6,988 bases of DNA from Escherichia coli (GTDB taxonomy: Bacteria; Pseudomonadota; Gammaproteobacteria; Enterobacterales; Enterobacteriaceae): NCBI RefSeq assembly GCF_024298765.1, contig NZ_CP101214.1; one strand, given 5' to 3'. Each line of letters begins with the position of its first letter. Positions within the stretch are counted from its first letter, which is position 1. The position numbers were made by a program, and so were the translations under genes. This document shows positions 1-6,988 of this stretch, piece by piece. The notes under the pieces were generated by a model that saw nothing but the letters and a program-made list of their open reading frames with translations, did no database searches and was not told the origin of the DNA.

Positions 1-378
1 GAACGCAGTAAGACTGGTCAGGGAGTAAGTGAGTATGACAGAGCTGGAAATGCACTTACTGAACGCCTTAGAGCAATTGCAGCAGGACTATACGCAGCGG
101 CTGAAAGACTGGGAGAGCGCCTTCACGGATTTGCAGCATATGTTCGAGCTGACACGACAGGAGAACGGGCAACTGAGGGAACAGTGCGACGACTTGAGTC
201 AGCAGGTGCAGAGATTAGCCGGGCAGGTGGACCACTTGAGTCGGTTATTTATCACGAACAGCAGATAAGGGATGAACAGGAAAGGCAGGCACGCCTGGAA
301 CGGGAGCGTGCGCGGTCCTGGCATGAAGAGCAGGAACGGGAAGCACGGGTATGGCGTGGCCCGTCAATAGGGATGTGA
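1..378 (+). CDS. mbeA: 3' portion of the MbeA/MobA-family relaxase gene (5'-truncated at the window edge; contiguous with 5768-6988 if the replicon is circular)
   Basis: Frame 1 is open from position 1 to TGA at 376-378 (126 codons) with no start codon needed. The window ends at 6988 exactly on an mbeA codon boundary, so 5768..6988 plus 1..378 would form one uninterrupted ORF of about 532 codons. The tail is Arg/Glu-rich (...ERERARSWHEEQEREARVWRGPSIGM). Confidence 0.55.
   Translation, partial: ERSKTGQGVSEYDRAGNALTERLRAIAAGLYAAAERLGERLHGFAAYVRADTTGERATEGTVRRLESAGAEISRAGGPLESVIYHEQQIRDEQERQARLERERARSWHEEQEREARVWRGPSIGM
35..268 (+). CDS. mbeD: MbeD/MobD-family small mobilisation protein (coiled-coil), nested in another frame within the 3' end of mbeA
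   Basis: ATG at 35 (in-frame GTG at 29), 77 aa, MTELEMHLLNALEQLQQDYTQRLKDWESAFTDLQ..., a heptad-rich helical protein. Its position inside the relaxase 3' region matches the ColE1 mob arrangement as I recall it. Family assignment is from memory, not a search. Confidence 0.6.
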   Translation: MTELEMHLLNALEQLQQDYTQRLKDWESAFTDLQHMFELTRQENGQLREQCDDLSQQVQRLAGQVDHLSRLFITNSR

Positions 379-599
379 CGGTGAGTTGTTCCGGGAGGTT
401 GCCAGATGGTACCGGAACGCGTTAAAAACGCATCCGGGCGCGATTCTGGCGTGTCGTTTTTGTTGCTGTGTTTTGCCTCTTTGCCAGATCGCGCTCATTC
501 CTCAGCCTCATCCCGCGATGTCTGCGTATGTCATCAACTGAAAAGATGGAAAAAAAACAGTGTCATGAGGTTTACACAGGCAAAACTAGCGTTATTCAC

Positions 600-748
600 A
601 TGGCTGAATAGCTATGCATACGGTTAAAATTTATCAGGTGCGATCGCGGCAGCTTTTCGGGTGGTTTGTTGCCATTTTTACCTGTCAGCAGCCGTGATCG
701 CGCTGAACGCATTTCAGCGGTGCGTACAATTAAGGGATTATGGTAAAT
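600..748 (+). other. cer-like Xer site-specific recombination (multimer resolution) site: ArgR-box-like element plus XerC/XerD core
   Basis: Core at 719-748 is GGTGCGTACAA (XerC arm) - TTAAGGGA (8-bp central region) - TTATGGTAAAT (XerD arm), which matches the ColE1 cer crossover site as I recall it. About 100 bp upstream (around 602-620) TGGCTGAATAGCTATGCAT resembles an ArgR box (TGAAT...ATTCA-like), at the spacing expected for the cer accessory region. Confidence 0.8.
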
Positions 749-751
749 CCC

Positions 752-1174
752 TTACTGTCTGCCCTCGTATCCATCGAGATAAACCGCAGAAATGGTGTCT
801 GCCATTAGTTTCATTTTTTTCGGCGAAGGCATATCGCTGTTTGTGTATTTTCTGCCAGCAAAGGCTGTTGTGCTCCGGAGTGAGTGAAAAAATTTTTCTG
901 AGTGGAATTCTTTTACACGTTGCTGTGCCGTTTCTGCTGATACTCCGGCTGCTTTGTCTTTCATCCCCATATCCCGGAACTGCTGAAAGAACGGGAGCAT
1001 CATACGTATGGTGTCTGCTTTCTGGGTGTAGAAGTTAGGATCAAATCCATCATCTGAAGCATAAACATAATGCCGGGTATGTCGTTCCAGGCTGGTCTTT
1101 GGTGTGCATCCTGTAAGAGCTATTGTTGCTGTTATCAGAGGTATCAGAAGCAGCCTGGCAGCGGCAGATTTCAT
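752..1174 (-). CDS. Small lipoprotein of unknown function (about 140 aa; possibly an entry-exclusion-type lipoprotein)
   Basis: ORF on the minus strand. AAGGAG lies 6 nt upstream of the second ATG (1174); the first ATG (1180) abuts the SD. N-terminus MKSAAARLLLIPLITATIALTGC has a basic n-region, a hydrophobic core and an L-T-G-C lipobox (signal peptidase II type). Thr at +2 suggests outer-membrane sorting. Confidence 0.65.
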   Translation of the reverse strand: MKSAAARLLLIPLITATIALTGCTPKTSLERHTRHYVYASDDGFDPNFYTQKADTIRMMLPFFQQFRDMGMKDKAAGVSAETAQQRVKEFHSEKFFHSLRSTTAFAGRKYTNSDMPSPKKMKLMADTISAVYLDGYEGRQ

Positions 1175-1295
1175 AAACATCTCCTTGCGTTTTTAATCTT
1201 GATACTCAGGGAGTTATATCTCCGAAGAGTATCTCTTATCATACGTCGGTTTACTCCCAATGTGATTTGATGGTCAATGAGTCAGGAATAATCCC

Positions 1296-1574
1296 GTGAA
1301 AAAATGTGTGCCAGTCCTGCTTTTTAGTGTTCTTTCTGCTTCGGTTGCCAGTCATGCGGACAGCAATGTTTTTCAACAAAAGGCCGAGAAGACAAAAAAC
1401 GGCATTGTTGCGGATGTTAATGCCAGACAGAAAATGTTCAGTAACAGACTGAAGATACAACTTCAGATCGATGAGTTGAGAGCAGAGCTGGCTGGCACCA
1501 GAGATGCCCAAAAAAGAGAGGATTTGCGTAAAAAACTGGAGTCTCTGGAGCGGCAAAAGAAATCCTTACGCTGA
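1296..1574 (+). CDS. Small Sec-secreted, highly charged coiled-coil protein of unknown function (92 aa precursor)
   Basis: GTG start at 1296 with AGGA 8 nt upstream. N-terminus MKKCVPVLLFSVLSASVASHA-DS is a typical signal peptide (KK n-region, hydrophobic core, S-H-A cleavage motif). Mature part is Lys/Glu/Arg/Gln-rich and predicted helical. TGA at 1572-1574. Confidence 0.5.
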   Translation: MKKCVPVLLFSVLSASVASHADSNVFQQKAEKTKNGIVADVNARQKMFSNRLKIQLQIDELRAELAGTRDAQKREDLRKKLESLERQKKSLR

Positions 1575-1856
1575 TGGGGGCGTATTTTCCCCGGTTTCTT
1601 CCATAACCTTTTTACCGTTCAGATATTTACGGGCGAGGCGAATGCGTCTTGCCTGGTATACCGCCGAGTAAGCCTGGGTGGGATTCACACCATTACTGAT
1701 TTCACTGACCACATGACGCTGATCAGCCAGTGTCAGCGTGTAAACCTGTTTCTGGATGAGGTCACGGGCTTTGTCATGCTCATATCCGGCAGCAACAAGG
1801 GTGTCGAGAAGTCGTTTGTCTGTTTTGTTCAGTTTATGGCGGGGTGATTTGCTCAC
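1566..1856 (-). CDS. Small basic protein with a putative helix-turn-helix (candidate DNA-binding regulator), unknown function
   Basis: Minus-strand ORF. Best start is GTG at 1856 with GGAG 6 nt upstream (the track's longer ORF starts at an in-frame TTG at 1883). 96 aa. The segment HVVSEISNGVNPTQAYSAVYQARRIRLARKY looks like helix-turn-helix. Converges on the 1296-1574 gene with a 9-bp overlap. Confidence 0.5.
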   Translation of the reverse strand: MSKSPRHKLNKTDKRLLDTLVAAGYEHDKARDLIQKQVYTLTLADQRHVVSEISNGVNPTQAYSAVYQARRIRLARKYLNGKKVMEETGENTPPSA

Positions 1857-1988
1857 ATCGTTCTCCGTTTTTTCATGATCCAACAGTTTTATATCTCATC
1901 CTGATTTGCTCCGGTGTTCTGTTTCGACGTTCTCAATGCCTGCCTCCCCATAGTGTGATCCTTATTGCAAAAATGAAAATCCATGCTC

Positions 1989-2054
1989 TTGACATGGACA
2001 ATGCTGAGTAGTAGGTTTTACTGTATATAAAACCAGTGGTTATATATACAGTAT
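1989..2054 (+). promoter_or_regulatory. Colicin operon promoter with tandem overlapping LexA (SOS) boxes
   Basis: -35 TTGACA at 1989-1994, with a -10 candidate in 2009-2020. CTGTATATAAAACCAG (2021-2036) overlaps GTGGTTATATATACAG (2036-2051): the CTGT-N8-ACAG-type double SOS operator typical of colicin promoters. AAGAGG RBS at 2085-2090 precedes the ATG at 2096. Confidence 0.8.
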
Positions 2055-2095
2055 ATTGTTTTTAATTTATTGTTTTAATTATCAAAGAGGAATTT

Positions 2096-3742
2096 ATGGC
2101 TAAAGAACTAAGTGGATATGGACCAACTGCTGGTGAGTCTATGGGGGGAACAGGGGCGAATCTGAATCAGCAAGGTGGAAATAATAATAGTAATAGTGGG
2201 GTTCACTGGGGTGGTGGCTCTGGGCATGGTAATAATGGTGGTCAGGGAAATTCAAATTCATCTGGTTCTACATCAACTGTGATGAAAACCGGTGAGTCAT
2301 ATCTGACTCCGTGGGGTGATGTTGTCATTAATAATGATGGCCTTCCGGTGATGAATGGTATTGTTATGACAGAAGAGAATTCAACTCTGGTTGATAATCC
2401 ATTTGGAGGGGTCTCCAGAGTTCTTAATTCTTTAATTAGTGATATGCCATCACTTTTTGCAGAAAGCTCAGGAAATAACAACAATAACACTGCTTCAGTT
2501 AATACTGCACCAACGAATGCTCAGGTCAGTGATATGGATAAGAGTTCGAAGGTGGTGGGTAATGTAATTAATGAAAAACAAAAGCAGAAGAATAAAATTG
2601 CTACACAGATTAGTGAAAAACAGAAGAAAATCGAGGAGATGAAAAAAGTATTCAAGCATCATTCTTATCATGGTATCACTGATCTTGAGAGGGATGTTGA
2701 TGAGTTGCAAAAAAAATCAAATCAGCTTGATGCAGATATTAGCAAACTTAATTCTTATAAAAATACATTGCAAAGTAAAATTGGTGATGTGAATAAACAG
2801 AAGGAAGCTGAAGAAAAGGTTCGTGAAAATGCAGAGGTCGCTGAACATGAAACTCTTAATGAAGAGAAACAGGCGGTGGCGGAAGCAGAGAAGCGTTTAG
2901 CTGAGGCGAAAGCTGAACTGGCGAAGGCTGAAAGTGATGTACAGAGTAAGCAAGCTACTGTTTCCAGAGTTGCAGGAGAGCTTGAAAACGCTCAGAAGAG
3001 TGTTGACGTGAAGGTCACCGGATTTCCGGGATGGCGTGACGTTCAGAAAAAACTACAGCGTCAGCTTGAAGCTAAGCAGGCTGAGTACTCCGCAGTTGAA
3101 AATGAACTTAAGAATGCTGTTAGTTTCAGGGATGGTAAGGCCGCTGAGGTTAAAGAGGCAGAGCAGAAATTAAAAGAAGCTCAGGATGCTCTTGAAAAGA
3201 GCCAGATAAAAGATGCTGTTGATACTATGGTTGGATTTTATCAATATATAACCGAACAATATGGAGAAAAATACGCAAAAATTGCTCAGGATTTAGCGGA
3301 AAAGTCTAAAGGAAAGAAAATTCAAGGTGTTGATGAAGCTCTGGCAGCATTTGAAAAGTATAAGAATGTACTGGATAAGAAATTCAGTAAGGTTGATCGG
3401 GATGCTATTTTTAATGCGTTAGAGTCTGTTAATTATGATGAGTTATCTAAGAATTTAACGAAGATATCAAAGTCGCTTAAAATCACCAGTCGAGTATCTT
3501 TTCTATATGATGTTGGTTCTGATTTTAAAAATGCAATAGAAACTGGTAACTGGCGACCTTTGTTTGTCACGCTGGAGAAAAGTGCGGTCGATGTAGGTGT
3601 GGCAAAAATTGTGGCATTAATGTTTAGTTTTATTGTTGGTGTGCCTCTTGGTTTCTGGGGGATTGCAATTGTCACAGGTATTGTTTCTTCTTACATAGGG
3701 GATGATGAGTTGAGCAAACTTAATGAGTTGTTAGGGATTTAA
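2096..3742 (+). CDS. cka: Pore-forming colicin, most likely colicin K (548 aa)
   Basis: 548-aa ORF with a Gly/Asn/Ser-rich N-terminal domain (typical of Tol-dependent colicin translocation domains), a long charged coiled-coil central region, and a C-terminal domain with a hydrophobic helical hairpin ([35 protein letters not shown]) typical of pore-forming colicins. Length and N-terminus [15 protein letters not shown]... match my recollection of colicin K. SOS promoter upstream, immunity and lysis genes downstream. Confidence 0.85.
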
Positions 3743-4029
3743 TTTCTCTTTAGAGTGTAATATATGAAACTTGGCAATCCTACTGGGATTGCCATTAATA
3801 AATAAAACAATGCAGATAACTTGCATAAGTACCAGGGTTCTTTTTTTAACTTTGTATTTTCTTTGATATATCTAGATATGGTTAATTTAGAGTATGGATA
3901 TAGCAATACATGTATTGATGATATAAATATAAATAACAAAGGAGTGTTATCATTCTCGTTAAATATTAAAATAAGAATCCATGGTATAAGTGATTCAGGT
4001 AAATTATGTAGGTAGTATTTTAAATGCAT
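3739..4029 (-). CDS. cki: Colicin immunity protein (integral membrane, 96 aa), convergent with the colicin gene
   Basis: Minus-strand ORF immediately downstream of and opposite to the colicin gene, the arrangement typical of pore-forming colicin immunity genes. Very hydrophobic protein with several predicted TM segments ([35 protein letters not shown]). Its stop codon overlaps the colicin stop at TTAA 3739-3742. Confidence 0.85.
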
Positions 4030-4058
4030 AAGTATTTTTACTTTTGTTGGAAAGAAAT

Positions 4059-4190
4059 ATGAAAATAATAATTTTTCTAATTACAATATTATTCTTGTCA
4101 GGATGTCAAGCAAACTATATTCGTGATGTACAAGGAGGAACCGTTGCACCATCTTCGTCTTCTGAACTGACGGGGATCGCGGTTCAGTAG
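4059..4190 (+). CDS. ckl: Colicin lysis (bacteriocin release) lipoprotein, 43 aa
   Basis: ATG at 4059, TAG at 4188-4190; not in the ORF track because it is short. [43 protein letters not shown] has a signal peptide with an L-S-G-C lipobox and the conserved mature region of colicin lysis proteins. Last gene of the colicin operon. Confidence 0.85.
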
Positions 4191-4199
4191 AAAAGATCA

Positions 4200-4226
4200 A
4201 AGGATCTTCTTGAGATCCTTTTTTTC
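4200..4226 (+). terminator. Putative rho-independent terminator at the end of the colicin operon (overlaps the RNA II promoter)
   Basis: Inverted repeat AAGGATC (4200-4206) / GATCCTT (4214-4220) with a 7-nt loop, followed by a T-run (4219-4225), 10 bp after the lysis gene stop. Confidence 0.55.
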
Positions 4227-4238
4227 TGCGCGTAATCT
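4210..4238 (+). promoter_or_regulatory. RNA II (replication primer) promoter
   Basis: -35 TTGAGA (4210-4215), 17-bp spacer, -10 TAATCT (4233-4238). Same architecture as the pMB1/ColE1 RNA II promoter in pBR322, recalled from memory. Confidence 0.75.
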
Positions 4239-4249
4239 GCTGCCTGTAA

Positions 4250-4352
4250 ACGAAAAAACCGCCTGGGGAGGCGGTTTAGTCGAAGGTTAAGTCAGTTGGG
4301 GACTGCTTAACCGGGTAACTGGCTTTAGTGGAGCACAGATACCAAATGCTGT
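4250..4352 (-). ncRNA. RNA I antisense copy-number control RNA (about 100 nt)
   Basis: Minus-strand promoter: -35 TTGAAG (complement of 4383-4388), 18-bp spacer, -10 TACACT (complement of 4359-4364), start near 4352 (ACAGCAUUUGG...). 3' end has a hairpin, AACCGCCT / AGGCGGTT at 4257-4276, followed on the minus strand by a U-run. Fully complementary to the 5' end of RNA II. Confidence 0.8.
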
Positions 4353-4358
4353 CCTTCC

Positions 4359-4388
4359 AGTGTAGCCGCTATAAGGCTTCAACTTCAA
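4359..4388 (-). promoter_or_regulatory. RNA I promoter
   Basis: TTGAAG -35 and TACACT -10 on the minus strand with an 18-bp spacer, arranged as in pBR322 RNA I. Confidence 0.7.
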
Positions 4389-4784
4389 GAGTTCTGCGTA
4401 TCTAAATCCACTATCCAGTTACCAATGGCTGCTGCCAGTGGCGTTAAGTCGTGTCTTACCGGGTTGGACTCAAGACGATAGTTACCGGATAAGGCGCAGC
4501 GGTCGGGCTGAACGGGGGGTTCGTGCACACAGCCCAGCTTGGAGCGAACGACCTACACCGAACTGAGATACCAACAGCGTGAGCTATGAGAAAGCGCCAC
4601 GCTTCCCAAAGGGAGAAAGGCGGACAGGTATCCGGTAAGCGGCAGGGTCGGAACAGGAGAGCGCACGAGGGAGCCACCAGGGGGAAACGCCTGGTATCTT
4701 TAAGTCCTGTCGGGTTTCGCCACCTCTGACTTGAGCGTCGGTTTTTGTGATGCTCGTCAGGGGGGCGGAGCCTATGGAAAAACG

Positions 4785-4815
4785 CCAGCTGCGTGGCCTT
4801 TTCCGGGTTCTTGTT
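4785..4815 (+). other. Approximate origin of replication (RNA II to DNA transition) of the ColE1-type replicon
   Basis: About 555 nt downstream of the RNA II start, in the sequence aacgccagctgcgtggccttttccgggttc, which corresponds to the pBR322 ori neighbourhood. The exact switch point cannot be fixed by eye. Confidence 0.5.
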
Positions 4816-5039
4816 TTTTGCTCACATGTTTCTTTTGGTGTTATCCCCTGATTCTGTGGATAACCGCATTACCGTCTTTGAGTGAGCTGATACCGCTCGC
4901 CGCAGCCGAACGACCGAGCGGAGCGAGTCAGTGAGCGAGGAAGCGGAAAAGCGCCTGGACGAGCATTTTCTCCTTACGCATCTGTGCGGCATTTCACACC
5001 CGGCATGGTGCACTTTTCATACAATCCTCACTGATGCCA

Positions 5040-5110
5040 AATGATTAAGCCAGTATACACTCCGCTATCGCTACGTGACTGGGTCATGGCTGCGCCCCGA
5101 CACCCGCTAA
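5040..5110 (-). other. bom / oriT region with putative nic site (basis of mobility)
   Basis: Sequence taagccagtatacactccgctatcgctacgtgactgggtcatggctgcgcc matches the pBR322 bom region as recalled. The reverse complement contains GTATACTGGCTTA, the ColE1-type nic motif, with the nick expected near 5049/5050 on the minus strand. Confidence 0.7.
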
Positions 5111-5195
5111 AACCCGCTGACGCGCCCTGACGGGCTTGTCTGCTCCCGGCATCCGCTCACAGGCCAGCTGTGACCGTCTCCGGGAGCTGCATGTG

Positions 5196-5387
5196 TCAGA
5201 GGTTTTCACCGTCATCCCCGAAGCGTGCGAGGCAGCTGCGGTAAAGCTCGTCAGCGTGGTCGTGAAGCGCTTCGCAGATGTCAGCCTGGTCGTCGGCGTC
5301 CAGTTCATTCAGTTTTTCCAGCAGGGTCAGCGTCTGGCTTCTGATGAAGCGGGCCATGTTAAGGGCGGTTTTTTCCTGTTTAGTCAC
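5196..5387 (-). CDS. rom: Rom/Rop (RNA-one modulator), 63 aa
   Basis: GTG start at 5387. Translation VTKQEKTALNMARFIRSQTLTLLEKLNELDADDQADICEALHDHADELYRSCLARFGDDGENL is nearly identical to pBR322 Rop as I recall it. The track's longer 143-aa ORF is an upstream in-frame extension. Confidence 0.9.
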   Translation of the reverse strand: MTKQEKTALNMARFIRSQTLTLLEKLNELDADDQADICEALHDHADELYRSCLARFGDDGENL

Positions 5388-5430
5388 AGTTCTGTTTCTC
5401 CATGTGTGGGGAGTCTGTCGGAGGTTTTTA

Positions 5431-5778
5431 ATGATACCGGTGAAACGCGAAAGGATGCTCACGATACGGGTCACGGATGAGGAACATGCGCGGCTGCTGG
5501 CACGTTGTGAGGGAAAACAACTTGCGTCATGGATGCGTAAGGTCTGCCTGGGGGCACCGCCATCGAAAACGTCAGGTCTTCCGACACTGGCACCGCCGCT
5601 GTTGCGCCAGTTCGCTTCGGTCGGCAATAACCTGAATCAGATAGCCCGGAAGATAAACAGCGGACAGTGGTCGGGGCATGACCGGGTTCATGTGGTGGCT
5701 GCACTGATGGCCATCGGACGTGAACTGAGTGAGCTGAGGGATGAGGTCCGTAAACAGGGAGAACGGGATGATAGTTAA
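5431..5778 (+). CDS. mbeC: MbeC/MobC-family mobilisation accessory protein (likely ribbon-helix-helix)
   Basis: ATG at 5431 has GGAGG 6 nt upstream; a second in-frame ATG at 5455 (MLTIRVTDEEHARLLARCEGKQLASWMRK...) would give 107 aa. N-terminus matches the MbeC remnant I recall in pBR322. Divergent from rom; its stop region overlaps the mbeA start. Confidence 0.8.
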   Translation: MIPVKRERMLTIRVTDEEHARLLARCEGKQLASWMRKVCLGAPPSKTSGLPTLAPPLLRQFASVGNNLNQIARKINSGQWSGHDRVHVVAALMAIGRELSELRDEVRKQGERDDS

Positions 5779-6988
5779 GTTTCATGCCAGGGGAAAAGGC
5801 GGTGGCAGTGGTCCGGTTGATTACCTGCTGGGCCGGGAGCGTAACCGGGAAGGGGCGAGAGTTCTGCGGGGTGCTCCCGAAGAGGTGCGGGAACTCATCG
5901 ATGCCACGCCGTTTGCGAAAAAATACACCTCGGGGGTTCTGTCTTTTGCAGAGCAGACCCTGCCACCGGGAGAGCGTGAAAGGGTGATGGAGAGCTTTGA
6001 GCGGGTACTGATGCCCGGTCTTGAAAAAAATCAGTACAGCATCCTGTGGGTGGAGCACCAGGACAAGGGGCGTCTTGAGCTGAATTTTGTCATCCCGAAT
6101 ATGGAGCTGGCGAGCGGAAAACGGCTCCAGCCCTATTACGACCGAGCAGACCGTCCGCGAATCAATGCCTGGCAGACACTGGTGAATCACCATTACGGGC
6201 TGCACGACCCGAACGCACCGGAGAACAGGCGGACACTTGTCACCCCGAATAATCTGCCGAAAGCGAAACAGGAGGCCGCAGAAGCGATTACGAGGGGACT
6301 GGAGGCTCTTTACCATGCCGGAGCACTAAAAACGCGTCAGGATGTCACTGAGGCGCTTACAGCGGCAGGTTTTGAGGTTGTGAGGACAACCAGGAGCAGT
6401 ATCAGTATCGCCGACCCGGAGGGTGGGCGTAATCTCAGGCTGAAAGGGGCGCTGTATGAGCAATCTTTTACAAATGGGGACAGACTTCGAGAAGAAACTG
6501 AAAGAGCGTGCCGTCTCTACAGAGAACATGCTGAACAGCGAGTTCAGGAAGCTCGAAGCGTCTGTAGACAGGGAACTGAACTTAAACGGGCAGAAAATCA
6601 GAGACGCTATCAGCGCACACACAGCAGCGGTGAAAGAACAACTGGAGACGCTGAACAGTGCCGTGAACGCGCAGTTCAGCGCCACAGAGAACGAACTGGC
6701 CCGGCGGCAGGAAGAGCTGCTCTGGAAGCTGGTCAAAGGGCGGATACTGTACCCGTCGCTGACGGCGCTTTGCGTCACGGGCGGGATTTTTCTGGCGTCA
6801 TGGGGGCTGATTCAGTGGCAGGAAAGCCGGATTGCGGCGAACATCCTGGCTATCAGGGACCAGGAAGAGACGCTGGCGAAACTCCGGGAAAAAACATGGG
6901 GTGTGACGTATCACGAGGGCAGGAACGGGAAATTTCTGGTGTTGCCGTCCGGGGTGAAGGGGGAAAACAACTGGACGGTGGAGAAGAA
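5768..6988 (+). CDS. mbeA: MbeA/MobA-family relaxase, 5' portion (ORF runs off the window end)
   Basis: ATG at 5768 overlapping the end of mbeC. N-terminus MIVKFHARGKGGGSGPVDYLLGRERNREGARVLRGAPEEV is typical of ColE1-family (MOB HEN-type) relaxases. No stop in frame through 6988 (407 codons), so it is absent from the ORF track. Confidence 0.9.
   Translation, partial: MIVKFHARGKGGGSGPVDYLLGRERNREGARVLRGAPEEVRELIDATPFAKKYTSGVLSFAEQTLPPGERERVMESFERVLMPGLEKNQYSILWVEHQDKGRLELNFVIPNMELASGKRLQPYYDRADRPRINAWQTLVNHHYGLHDPNAPENRRTLVTPNNLPKAKQEAAEAITRGLEALYHAGALKTRQDVTEALTAAGFEVVRTTRSSISIADPEGGRNLRLKGALYEQSFTNGDRLREETERACRLYREHAEQRVQEARSVCRQGTELKRAENQRRYQRTHSSGERTTGDAEQCRERAVQRHRERTGPAAGRAALEAGQRADTVPVADGALRHGRDFSGVMGADSVAGKPDCGEHPGYQGPGRDAGETPGKNMGCDVSRGQEREISGVAVRGEGGKQLDGGEE
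6456..6988 (+). CDS. mbeB: MbeB/MobB-family mobilisation protein, nested in an alternate frame within mbeA (3' end beyond the window edge)
   Basis: ATG at 6456 (alternative in-frame ATG at 6474). MSNLLQMGTDFEKKLKERAVSTENMLNSEFRKLEASVDRELNLNGQKIRDAI..., with a predicted TM segment (ILYPSLTALCVTGGIFLASWGLI). Open to the window end. If the replicon is circular the frame would stop at window positions 26-28, just before mbeD. Confidence 0.65.
   Translation, partial: MSNLLQMGTDFEKKLKERAVSTENMLNSEFRKLEASVDRELNLNGQKIRDAISAHTAAVKEQLETLNSAVNAQFSATENELARRQEELLWKLVKGRILYPSLTALCVTGGIFLASWGLIQWQESRIAANILAIRDQEETLAKLREKTWGVTYHEGRNGKFLVLPSGVKGENNWTVEK

Follow-up and report, generated by a model that had tools for sequence, protein, structure and literature searches.

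Both ends of the window (the whole stretch of 6,988 nucleotides analysed here) lie within open reading frames, which raises the question of whether these ends are contiguous in the original molecule, that is, whether a circular plasmid was cut inside its relaxase gene, or whether sequence is missing between them. The initial annotation had considered the ends probably contiguous, in a circle of about 7 kb with nothing missing, and this view is supported here on the basis of the same length and the colinearity with independent records. The features of the window are displayed in Table 1.

Table 1. Features located in the window and the basis of each assignment.
Feature	Position	Strand	Basis or remark
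mbeA (relaxase), codons 1-407	5768..6988	+	ATG 5768; NCBIfam NF047848
mbeA, codons 408-532 and TGA 376-378	1..378	+	open from base 1; alignment to the C-terminal part of ColE1 MbeA reaches residue 516
mbeB, first 533 bases, nested in mbeA in another frame	6456..6988	+	Pfam MbeB_N; RefSeq WP_000067492.1
mbeB, last 28 bases including TAA 26-28	1..28	+	junction in codon 178
mbeD, nested in mbeA	35..268	+	NCBIfam NF033829, Pfam MbeD_MobD
mbeC, MobC-type relaxosome accessory protein	5455..5778	+	Pfam MobC and NikA-like; RefSeq WP_001444404.1
oriT (bom) nick-region motif GGAGTGTATACTGGCTTAA	5045..5063	-	exact unique match to the pBR322/ColE1 pattern
rop (rom), RNAI/RNAII kissing-complex stabiliser	5196..5387	-	Pfam Rop; RefSeq annotation transfer
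RNAI, antisense copy-number control RNA	4250..4350	-	Rfam RF00106
RNAII pre-primer and replication origin	4248..4810 (approximate, inferred)	+	complementary to RNAI at the 5' end
cer-type XerC/XerD core site, multimer resolution	719..748	+	exact match to ColE1 cer core
cka, colicin K, 548 aa, pore-forming	2096..3742	+	ORF; RefSeq WP_011264160.1
cki, colicin K immunity protein	3739..4029	-	RefSeq WP_011264161.1 in near-identical plasmids
Colicin release (lysis) lipoprotein	4059..4190	+	Pfam Lysis_col, 84.7 bits
exc2 lipoprotein	752..1174	-	RefSeq 'Exc2 family lipoprotein' in identical plasmids
Conserved hypothetical, 92 aa, signal-peptide-like N-terminus	1296..1574	+	RefSeq WP_000710675.1
Conserved hypothetical, 96 aa, IS2 insertion site in pColK-K235	1566..1856	-	RefSeq WP_000047032.1

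Reading frames across the junction

The mbeA frame extends from its ATG to base 6988 over 1221 bases, which are exactly 407 codons, so that codon 407 ends at the cut and codon 408 begins the window; the codon boundary described at the last base in the initial annotation is therefore confirmed by the count. Base 1 opens a frame without a start codon at its own 5' end, whose stop is the TGA at 376-378. When base 6988 is joined to base 1, mbeA has 532 codons and mbeB has 186. The latter gene crosses the junction within codon 178 and its TAA is found 6 bases ahead of the mbeD ATG, so that the coordinates previously given for the mbeB stop (26-28) and for the two candidate mbeD starts (GTG 29 and ATG 35) were correct. 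Two frames seem to run across the ends, and mbeB stops just ahead of mbeD, because mbeB and mbeD are nested within mbeA. This layout, with mbeC upstream, is found here and in ColE1, and the nesting has also been described for relatives (PMC5935869).

The remaining forward frame and all three reverse frames around the junction close in 13-81 codons. Considering the base composition, a frame starting at base 1 would stay open for 125 codons with a chance of about 7e-4, and a frame of 532 codons has a chance of about 3e-14; therefore, unrelated ends would not produce such joining frames. If a circle is opened at an arbitrary position, about 10% of the possible cuts have 100 or more open codons to either side, and it is thus unremarkable to find the cut within a long gene if the sequence is circular.

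The length of the relaxase was compared with that of its ColE1 counterpart, as had been suggested. The joined MbeA (532 aa) and ColE1 MbeA (517 aa) align over their full length (residues 1-531 to residues 1-516, 61% identity), and the alignment shows no lost internal segment where the two ends meet. NF047848, the curated MbeA model of NCBI with a cut-off of 500 bits, scored 717 bits against the joined protein in a single stretch spanning the junction (residues 1-511 to model positions 1-491 of 497). The residues Y19, H97, E104 and N106, a numbering that reportedly comes from Varsaki et al. in 2003, are present and identical to those of ColE1; they are the catalytic tyrosine and an HEN motif, not a 3-His one. 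The HEN metal-binding motif is a feature of MOBP5 (PMC3394729).

Concerning the other mobilisation genes, MbeB matched Pfam MbeB_N with 84 bits and is 46% identical to ColE1 MbeB, and the RefSeq MbeB of identical plasmids (WP_000067492.1) maps to the mbeB of the window. The mbeD product matched NF033829 (121 bits) and Pfam MbeD_MobD (118 bits), both from residue 1. The gene, with its start at ATG 35 in RefSeq and GTG 29 as the alternative, has 234 nt, the same length as ColE1 mbeD. The mbeC gene overlaps the start of mbeA by 11 bases. Matches of MbeB to the DISARM protein DrmD (20 bits versus a cut-off of 950) and of MbeD to SHE3 (below the cut-off) were also obtained and dismissed as coiled-coil noise.

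Matching records and the form of the molecule

In the plasmid collection, at least 12 independently deposited records are exactly 6,988 bp long and 99.8-99.9% identical to the window. Their hosts are E. coli, Salmonella and Shigella, and further records of this type are present in the E. coli complete-genome set. These plasmids were linearised at no fewer than 8 different points, and all of them read through the window junction. A 1,200-bp query spanning the junction was found with 100% coverage as one ungapped piece; 196 records matched at ≥80% query coverage, with a best identity of 99.9%. Two plasmids, pB1172_6988 (NZ_CP120553.1, E. coli) and pRM003_1 (NZ_CP117313.1, Salmonella Derby), are equal to the window in length, to the base, and in gene order. 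Once rotated onto it they show 6 and 7 substitutions and no indels; they differ from the window only in the linearisation point and a few SNPs (576, 1170, 2820, 3955, 6325 and others). The check for a terminal overlap between the ends of the window found no exact end/start repeat of 8-199 bases. The matching independent records are flagged as circular and complete where inspected (two records). No record in the searched collections begins at the first base of the window, and its full-length matches are in two pieces (rotated); the sole single-piece full-length match lies inside a linear trimer record.

The reference colicin K plasmid, pColK-K235 (NC_006881.1, 8,318 bp), shows 99.6% identity across the whole window, contains its cka, cki and lysis genes, its replicon and its mbe genes, and runs from 7414 to 7415 across the junction. 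It differs in a 1,330-bp IS2 block at window position ~1769-1774, in the gene of the 96-aa hypothetical protein, whereas the window is free of IS2. These statements rest on the GenBank record and the alignment; a literature search for pColK-K235 returned passing mentions only.

Regarding these data, the probability is about 96% that the window represents one whole monomer of a mobilisable colicin K plasmid from the ColE1 family, a circle of 6,988 bp, namely the IS2-free form of pColK-K235, linearised at an arbitrary base in mbeA by the assembler or the record-maker. In this particular isolate the plasmid would be circular, judging from the matching records. The plasmid is already well known, and in-frame ends are an ordinary outcome of linearising a circle.

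The deposited records also include tandem copies of this plasmid, with sizes of 13.8, 18.0, 20.4 and 21.0 kb, and these head-to-tail multimers read through the window junction too. The 13.8-kb record is circular and has two copies, one of them with a 189-bp deletion; the 21.0-kb record is linear and has three copies and frameshifts. Given these deposits, the plasmid might in principle be present as a multimer in the source cell. However, it is very unlikely that the window is one repeat unit of a larger head-to-tail multimer or heteromultimer and that the real molecule measures 14-21 kb, since most of the records are monomeric 6,988-bp circles, the linear, frameshift-rich record of 21 kb is as expected for an uncollapsed long-read concatemer, and the window carries an exact cer XerCD core, multimer resolution being the function of such sites. 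Even if this were the case, the junction would be contiguous and no sequence would be missing from the unit. It also seems very unlikely that the plasmid is mainly a stable multimer or heteromultimer in the source isolate despite its intact cer (as the circular 13.8-kb record might suggest), or that the two conserved small genes between exc2 and cka have an accessory role still to be characterised; either of them, if true, would leave the verdict on the closed circle unchanged.

Finally, an incomplete linear contig, with sequence between its ends (for instance an IS element, or a block that keeps the frame) and frames that agree by coincidence, is extremely improbable and already effectively refuted: a gap of random length would keep the frame 1 time in 3, and relatives with insertions are known (pColK-K235 with IS2 and a 9,695-bp variant with IS66), but those insertions sit elsewhere (window ~1770), away from the junction, the length is the same to the base as that of the independent circular records, without indels after rotation, and the alignments of MbeA and MbeB to ColE1 and to the family model continue over the junction without losing a segment.

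Replicon, transfer origin and colicin genes

The complete circle shares the architecture of ColE1 (NC_001371.1, 6,646 bp), i.e., the lysis gene, the RNAI/RNAII origin, bom, rop, mbeC, mbeA with nested mbeB and mbeD, exc2 and cer. Nucleotide identity reaches 83% over 4101-6610, a segment that includes the origin region, and the cer core is identical. On the other hand, ColE1 makes colicin E1 and the plasmid in the window colicin K, the window has no exc1 gene, MbeA and MbeB are 15 and 14 aa longer than their ColE1 counterparts, respectively, and two extra small hypothetical genes are found between exc2 and cka.

RNAI was detected at full length with RF00106 (77.4 bits versus a gathering score of 47), and Rop matched its Pfam family with 125 bits. 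The end points of RNAII were placed by reference to ColE1 RNAII, of about 555 nt. Within RNAII sits a 47-aa ORF (4385-4528, reverse strand) which RefSeq calls a 'replication initiation protein' and which has no Pfam match. Replication would proceed by the ColE1 mechanism, where the RNAII pre-primer is processed at the origin, and would then need Pol I and RNase H but no Rep protein of the plasmid; by homology, the plasmid has antisense control by RNAI and Rop. The cer core agrees at 30 of 30 bases with that of ColE1 (none of 200 shuffles matched), and by homology it belongs to the sites at which host XerCD resolves multimers.

As for the transfer origin, the 19-base core GGAGTGTATACTGGCTTAA of the pBR322/ColE1 oriT nick region has one exact match in the window and none in 200 shuffles. 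The nick is predicted between 5050 and 5049 on the reverse strand, by analogy with ColE1/pBR322. A longer pattern of 31 bases, from the oriT of pBR322, had no match in the window at up to 3 mismatches because pColK diverges 3' of CTTAA. MbeA would nick oriT, and a co-resident conjugative plasmid could then mobilise the plasmid.

The cluster of cka, cki and the lysis gene is complete, as in pColK plasmids. The Pfam search gave no match for exc2 or for the hypothetical proteins of 92 and 96 aa.

Annotation of the relaxase gene

In identical plasmids, RefSeq labels mbeA as a truncated pseudogene, 'missing C-terminus'. The defective relaxase that this label would imply was rejected, since 532 codons are open and the product is full length when compared with ColE1 MbeA and NF047848. 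The same misannotation has been documented for 487 ColE1-like loci (PMC11229322), and the pseudogene label is a documented annotation artefact.

This is a matter of bookkeeping only: the sequence can be used as a closed replicon of 6,988 bp that lacks nothing, and the annotation of mbeA and mbeB should run over the point where the record begins. When a small plasmid is linearised inside mbeA and the pipeline refuses genes that lie wholly within others, an intact relaxase seems absent or pseudogenised, and when the relaxase is hidden in this way the mobility of the plasmid could be mis-scored.

Reading frames across the junction

When the last base of the window was joined to the first and all six frames were translated across this 6988/1 junction, one plus-strand frame stayed open for 542 codons, and it holds a 532-codon relaxase gene, mbeA, from ATG 5768 to TGA 376-378. 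At 1,221 bases, the part at 5768..6988 makes up 407 whole codons, which puts the cut on an mbeA codon boundary, as the initial annotation had stated. A second plus-strand frame carries the 186-codon mbeB from ATG 6456, with the junction inside codon 178 and a TAA at 26-28, and is followed by mbeD (ATG 35, with an in-frame GTG upstream at 29, ending at 268). The tight spacing already remarked on for these two genes holds: mbeB stops 6 bases ahead of the mbeD ATG, and the two genes lie within mbeA, which is the normal nested organisation of the ColE1 family. The other four frames are shut within 13-81 codons at the junction. Given the base composition, a frame that stays open for 125 codons from base 1 has a probability of about 7e-4, and one of 532 codons about 3e-14. 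If a circle is cut at random, ~10% of cut points have 100 or more open codons on each side. Hence, this pattern would be very unlikely if the ends were unrelated, and is nothing unusual in a circle that has been linearised.

Concerning the joined proteins, residues 1-531 of MbeA (532 aa) align to residues 1-516 of ColE1 MbeA (517 aa) with 61% identity and no gaps other than short ones in the central and C-terminal part, where conservation is poor. The proposed check of relaxase length gave an end-to-end alignment, and the match to NCBIfam NF047848 'plasmid mobilization relaxase MbeA' (717 bits, cut-off 500) is one stretch of residues 1-511 covering the junction at 407/408. MbeA carries Y19 and the H97/E104/N106 motif; MOBP5 ColE1-like relaxases have this HEN motif as their hallmark (PMC3394729). 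MbeB has the Pfam MbeB_N domain, and its residues 1-170 show 46% identity to residues 1-158 of ColE1 MbeB, in an alignment that ends before junction codon 178.

In the identical 6,988-bp plasmids, RefSeq/PGAP describes mbeA as a 318-base pseudogene (1161-1478 in the E. coli plasmid pB1172_6988), 'incomplete; partial in the middle of a contig; missing C-terminus', and the gene is omitted altogether from the PLSDB gene tables. This call was rejected because the 532-codon frame is uninterrupted and its product is full length in comparison with ColE1 MbeA. It is a known artefact tied to the nesting of mbeB and mbeD in mbeA, and the same misclassification was reported and excluded in 487 cases in ColE1-like plasmids (PMC11229322).

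Matching records and circularity

For a 1,200-bp junction query (600 bases from each end of the window), 196 plasmid records covered 80% or more of the sequence. The best of them matched in one piece at 99.9% identity, and the matching segment sat at many different places inside 6,988-bp records. Moreover, the whole window is matched by 12 records in the plasmid collection whose length is exactly 6,988 bp (99.8-99.9% identity), and by further such records in the E. coli complete-genome set. NZ_CP120553.1 (pB1172_6988) and NZ_CP117313.1 (pRM003_1, Salmonella Derby) are both flagged circular and complete and, once rotated, present 6 and 7 substitutions and 0 indels. No terminal overlap of 8-199 bases was found between the window ends. 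The in-frame ends were confirmed, and the reading first offered for them, a probable complete circular replicon with nothing missing, is supported by the matching records: at the sequence level, complete joined proteins, a contiguous junction and closed circles of 6,988 bp are three independent lines indicating that nothing is missing at the junction.

It is very improbable that the window is one unit of a head-to-tail multimer, even though such records have been deposited: NZ_JBUBIV010000002.1 (circular, 13,786 bp) has two copies, the second without window 6557-6745, NZ_JBTZOV010000003.1 (linear, 20,971 bp) has about three with several frameshifts, and 18.0-kb and 20.4-kb records also show three places each. 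They have the look of long-read concatemers left uncollapsed, or of real multimers that occur now and then. They, too, read through the window junction, and the monomer is favoured as the heritable unit by the intact cer site. That the junction hides an insertion or deletion is less credible still, since the length and indel comparison with the matching records excludes it.

Regarding the multimer records themselves, the loss of 189 bases (window 6557-6745) at 6989-8047 of the circular one fuses the N-terminal part of mbeA to the mbeB frame, and PGAP labels the 352-aa fusion product an intact 'mbeA'; this dimer may be real, as a heterodimer, or may have arisen in the assembly. The linear one has frameshifted cka and mbeB copies and resembles a concatemer of long reads that was not collapsed before being deposited as a plasmid.

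Gene content and relation to colicin plasmids

On sequence comparison, the window corresponds to the reference colicin K plasmid, pColK-K235 (NC_006881.1, 8,318 bp), without its IS2. The two are 99.6% identical, pColK-K235 reads 7414->7415 across the window junction, and the one large difference is a 1,330-bp IS2 block that it carries at window 1769-1774. The map was obtained by moving the RefSeq annotation from identical plasmids by the rotation offset, together with our own checks; the cer and oriT queries were what we take to be the ColE1 cer core and the pBR322/ColE1 nick-region pattern.

Features of the 6,988-bp plasmid and the basis of their assignment
Feature	Position	Strand	Basis
mbeD	35-268	+	NF033829, PF04899
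ColE1 cer XerC/XerD core	719-748	+	exact 30/30 copy
exc2	752-1174	-	annotation of matching records
conserved hypothetical gene	1296-1574	+	no Pfam hit
conserved hypothetical gene	1566-1856	-	no Pfam hit
cka, colicin K	2096-3742	+	ORF, annotation of matching records
cki, immunity	3739-4029	-	ORF, annotation of matching records
lysis gene	4059-4190	+	PF02402
RNAI	4250-4350	-	Rfam RF00106, 77 bits
RNAII and ori (inferred limits)	~4248-4810	+	ColE1 comparison
oriT nick-region motif GGAGTGTATACTGGCTTAA	5045-5063	-	motif match
rop	5196-5387	-	PF01815
mbeC	5455-5778	+	PF05713, PF21983
mbeA	5768-6988 + 1-378	+	frame, ColE1 MbeA alignment, NF047848
mbeB	6456-6988 + 1-28	+	frame, MbeB_N, ColE1 MbeB alignment

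By homology, the plasmid has RNAI antisense control with Rop and a cer site like those at which XerCD resolves multimers. It also carries a colicin K module with immunity and lysis genes and, adjoining the oriT motif, a MOBP5 relaxosome (MbeC, MbeA and the nested MbeB and MbeD). Processed RNAII would prime replication by host Pol I, and RNAII-type replicons of the ColE1 family need no Rep protein. A 47-aa ORF inside the RNAII/ori region (4385-4528, minus strand), named 'replication initiation protein' in RefSeq, gave no Pfam hit; it is probably spurious, and its name misleading. MbeA would nick oriT, presumably between 5050 and 5049 on the minus strand as in ColE1/pBR322, and transfer would then need a co-resident conjugative plasmid.

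ColE1 (NC_001371.1) has the same layout, with 83% nucleotide identity from the lysis gene through ori, rop, mbeC and the N-terminal half of mbeA, but it lacks the two small genes between exc2 and cka. These are kept in all pColK-type records, and the plus-strand gene encodes a 92-aa product whose N-terminus resembles a signal peptide. The minus-strand gene (96 aa) is broken by IS2 at window ~1770 in pColK-K235, which makes it dispensable for plasmid maintenance.

The window is thus an already known, widespread plasmid, whose matches come from E. coli, Salmonella enterica and Shigella flexneri and from cattle, pigs, poultry, humans and wastewater. Sister plasmids of 6,818-6,822 and 7,769 bp (e.g. 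NC_023328.1, NZ_CP031900.1) share ~97% identity over 89% of the window and carry, in place of cka, a different 'colicin-like pore-forming protein' beside a cki-annotated immunity gene; the same backbone is also found with colicin 10 (NZ_CP021102.1). This suggests that colicin modules (colicin K, that of the sister group and colicin 10) have been swapped on a common backbone.
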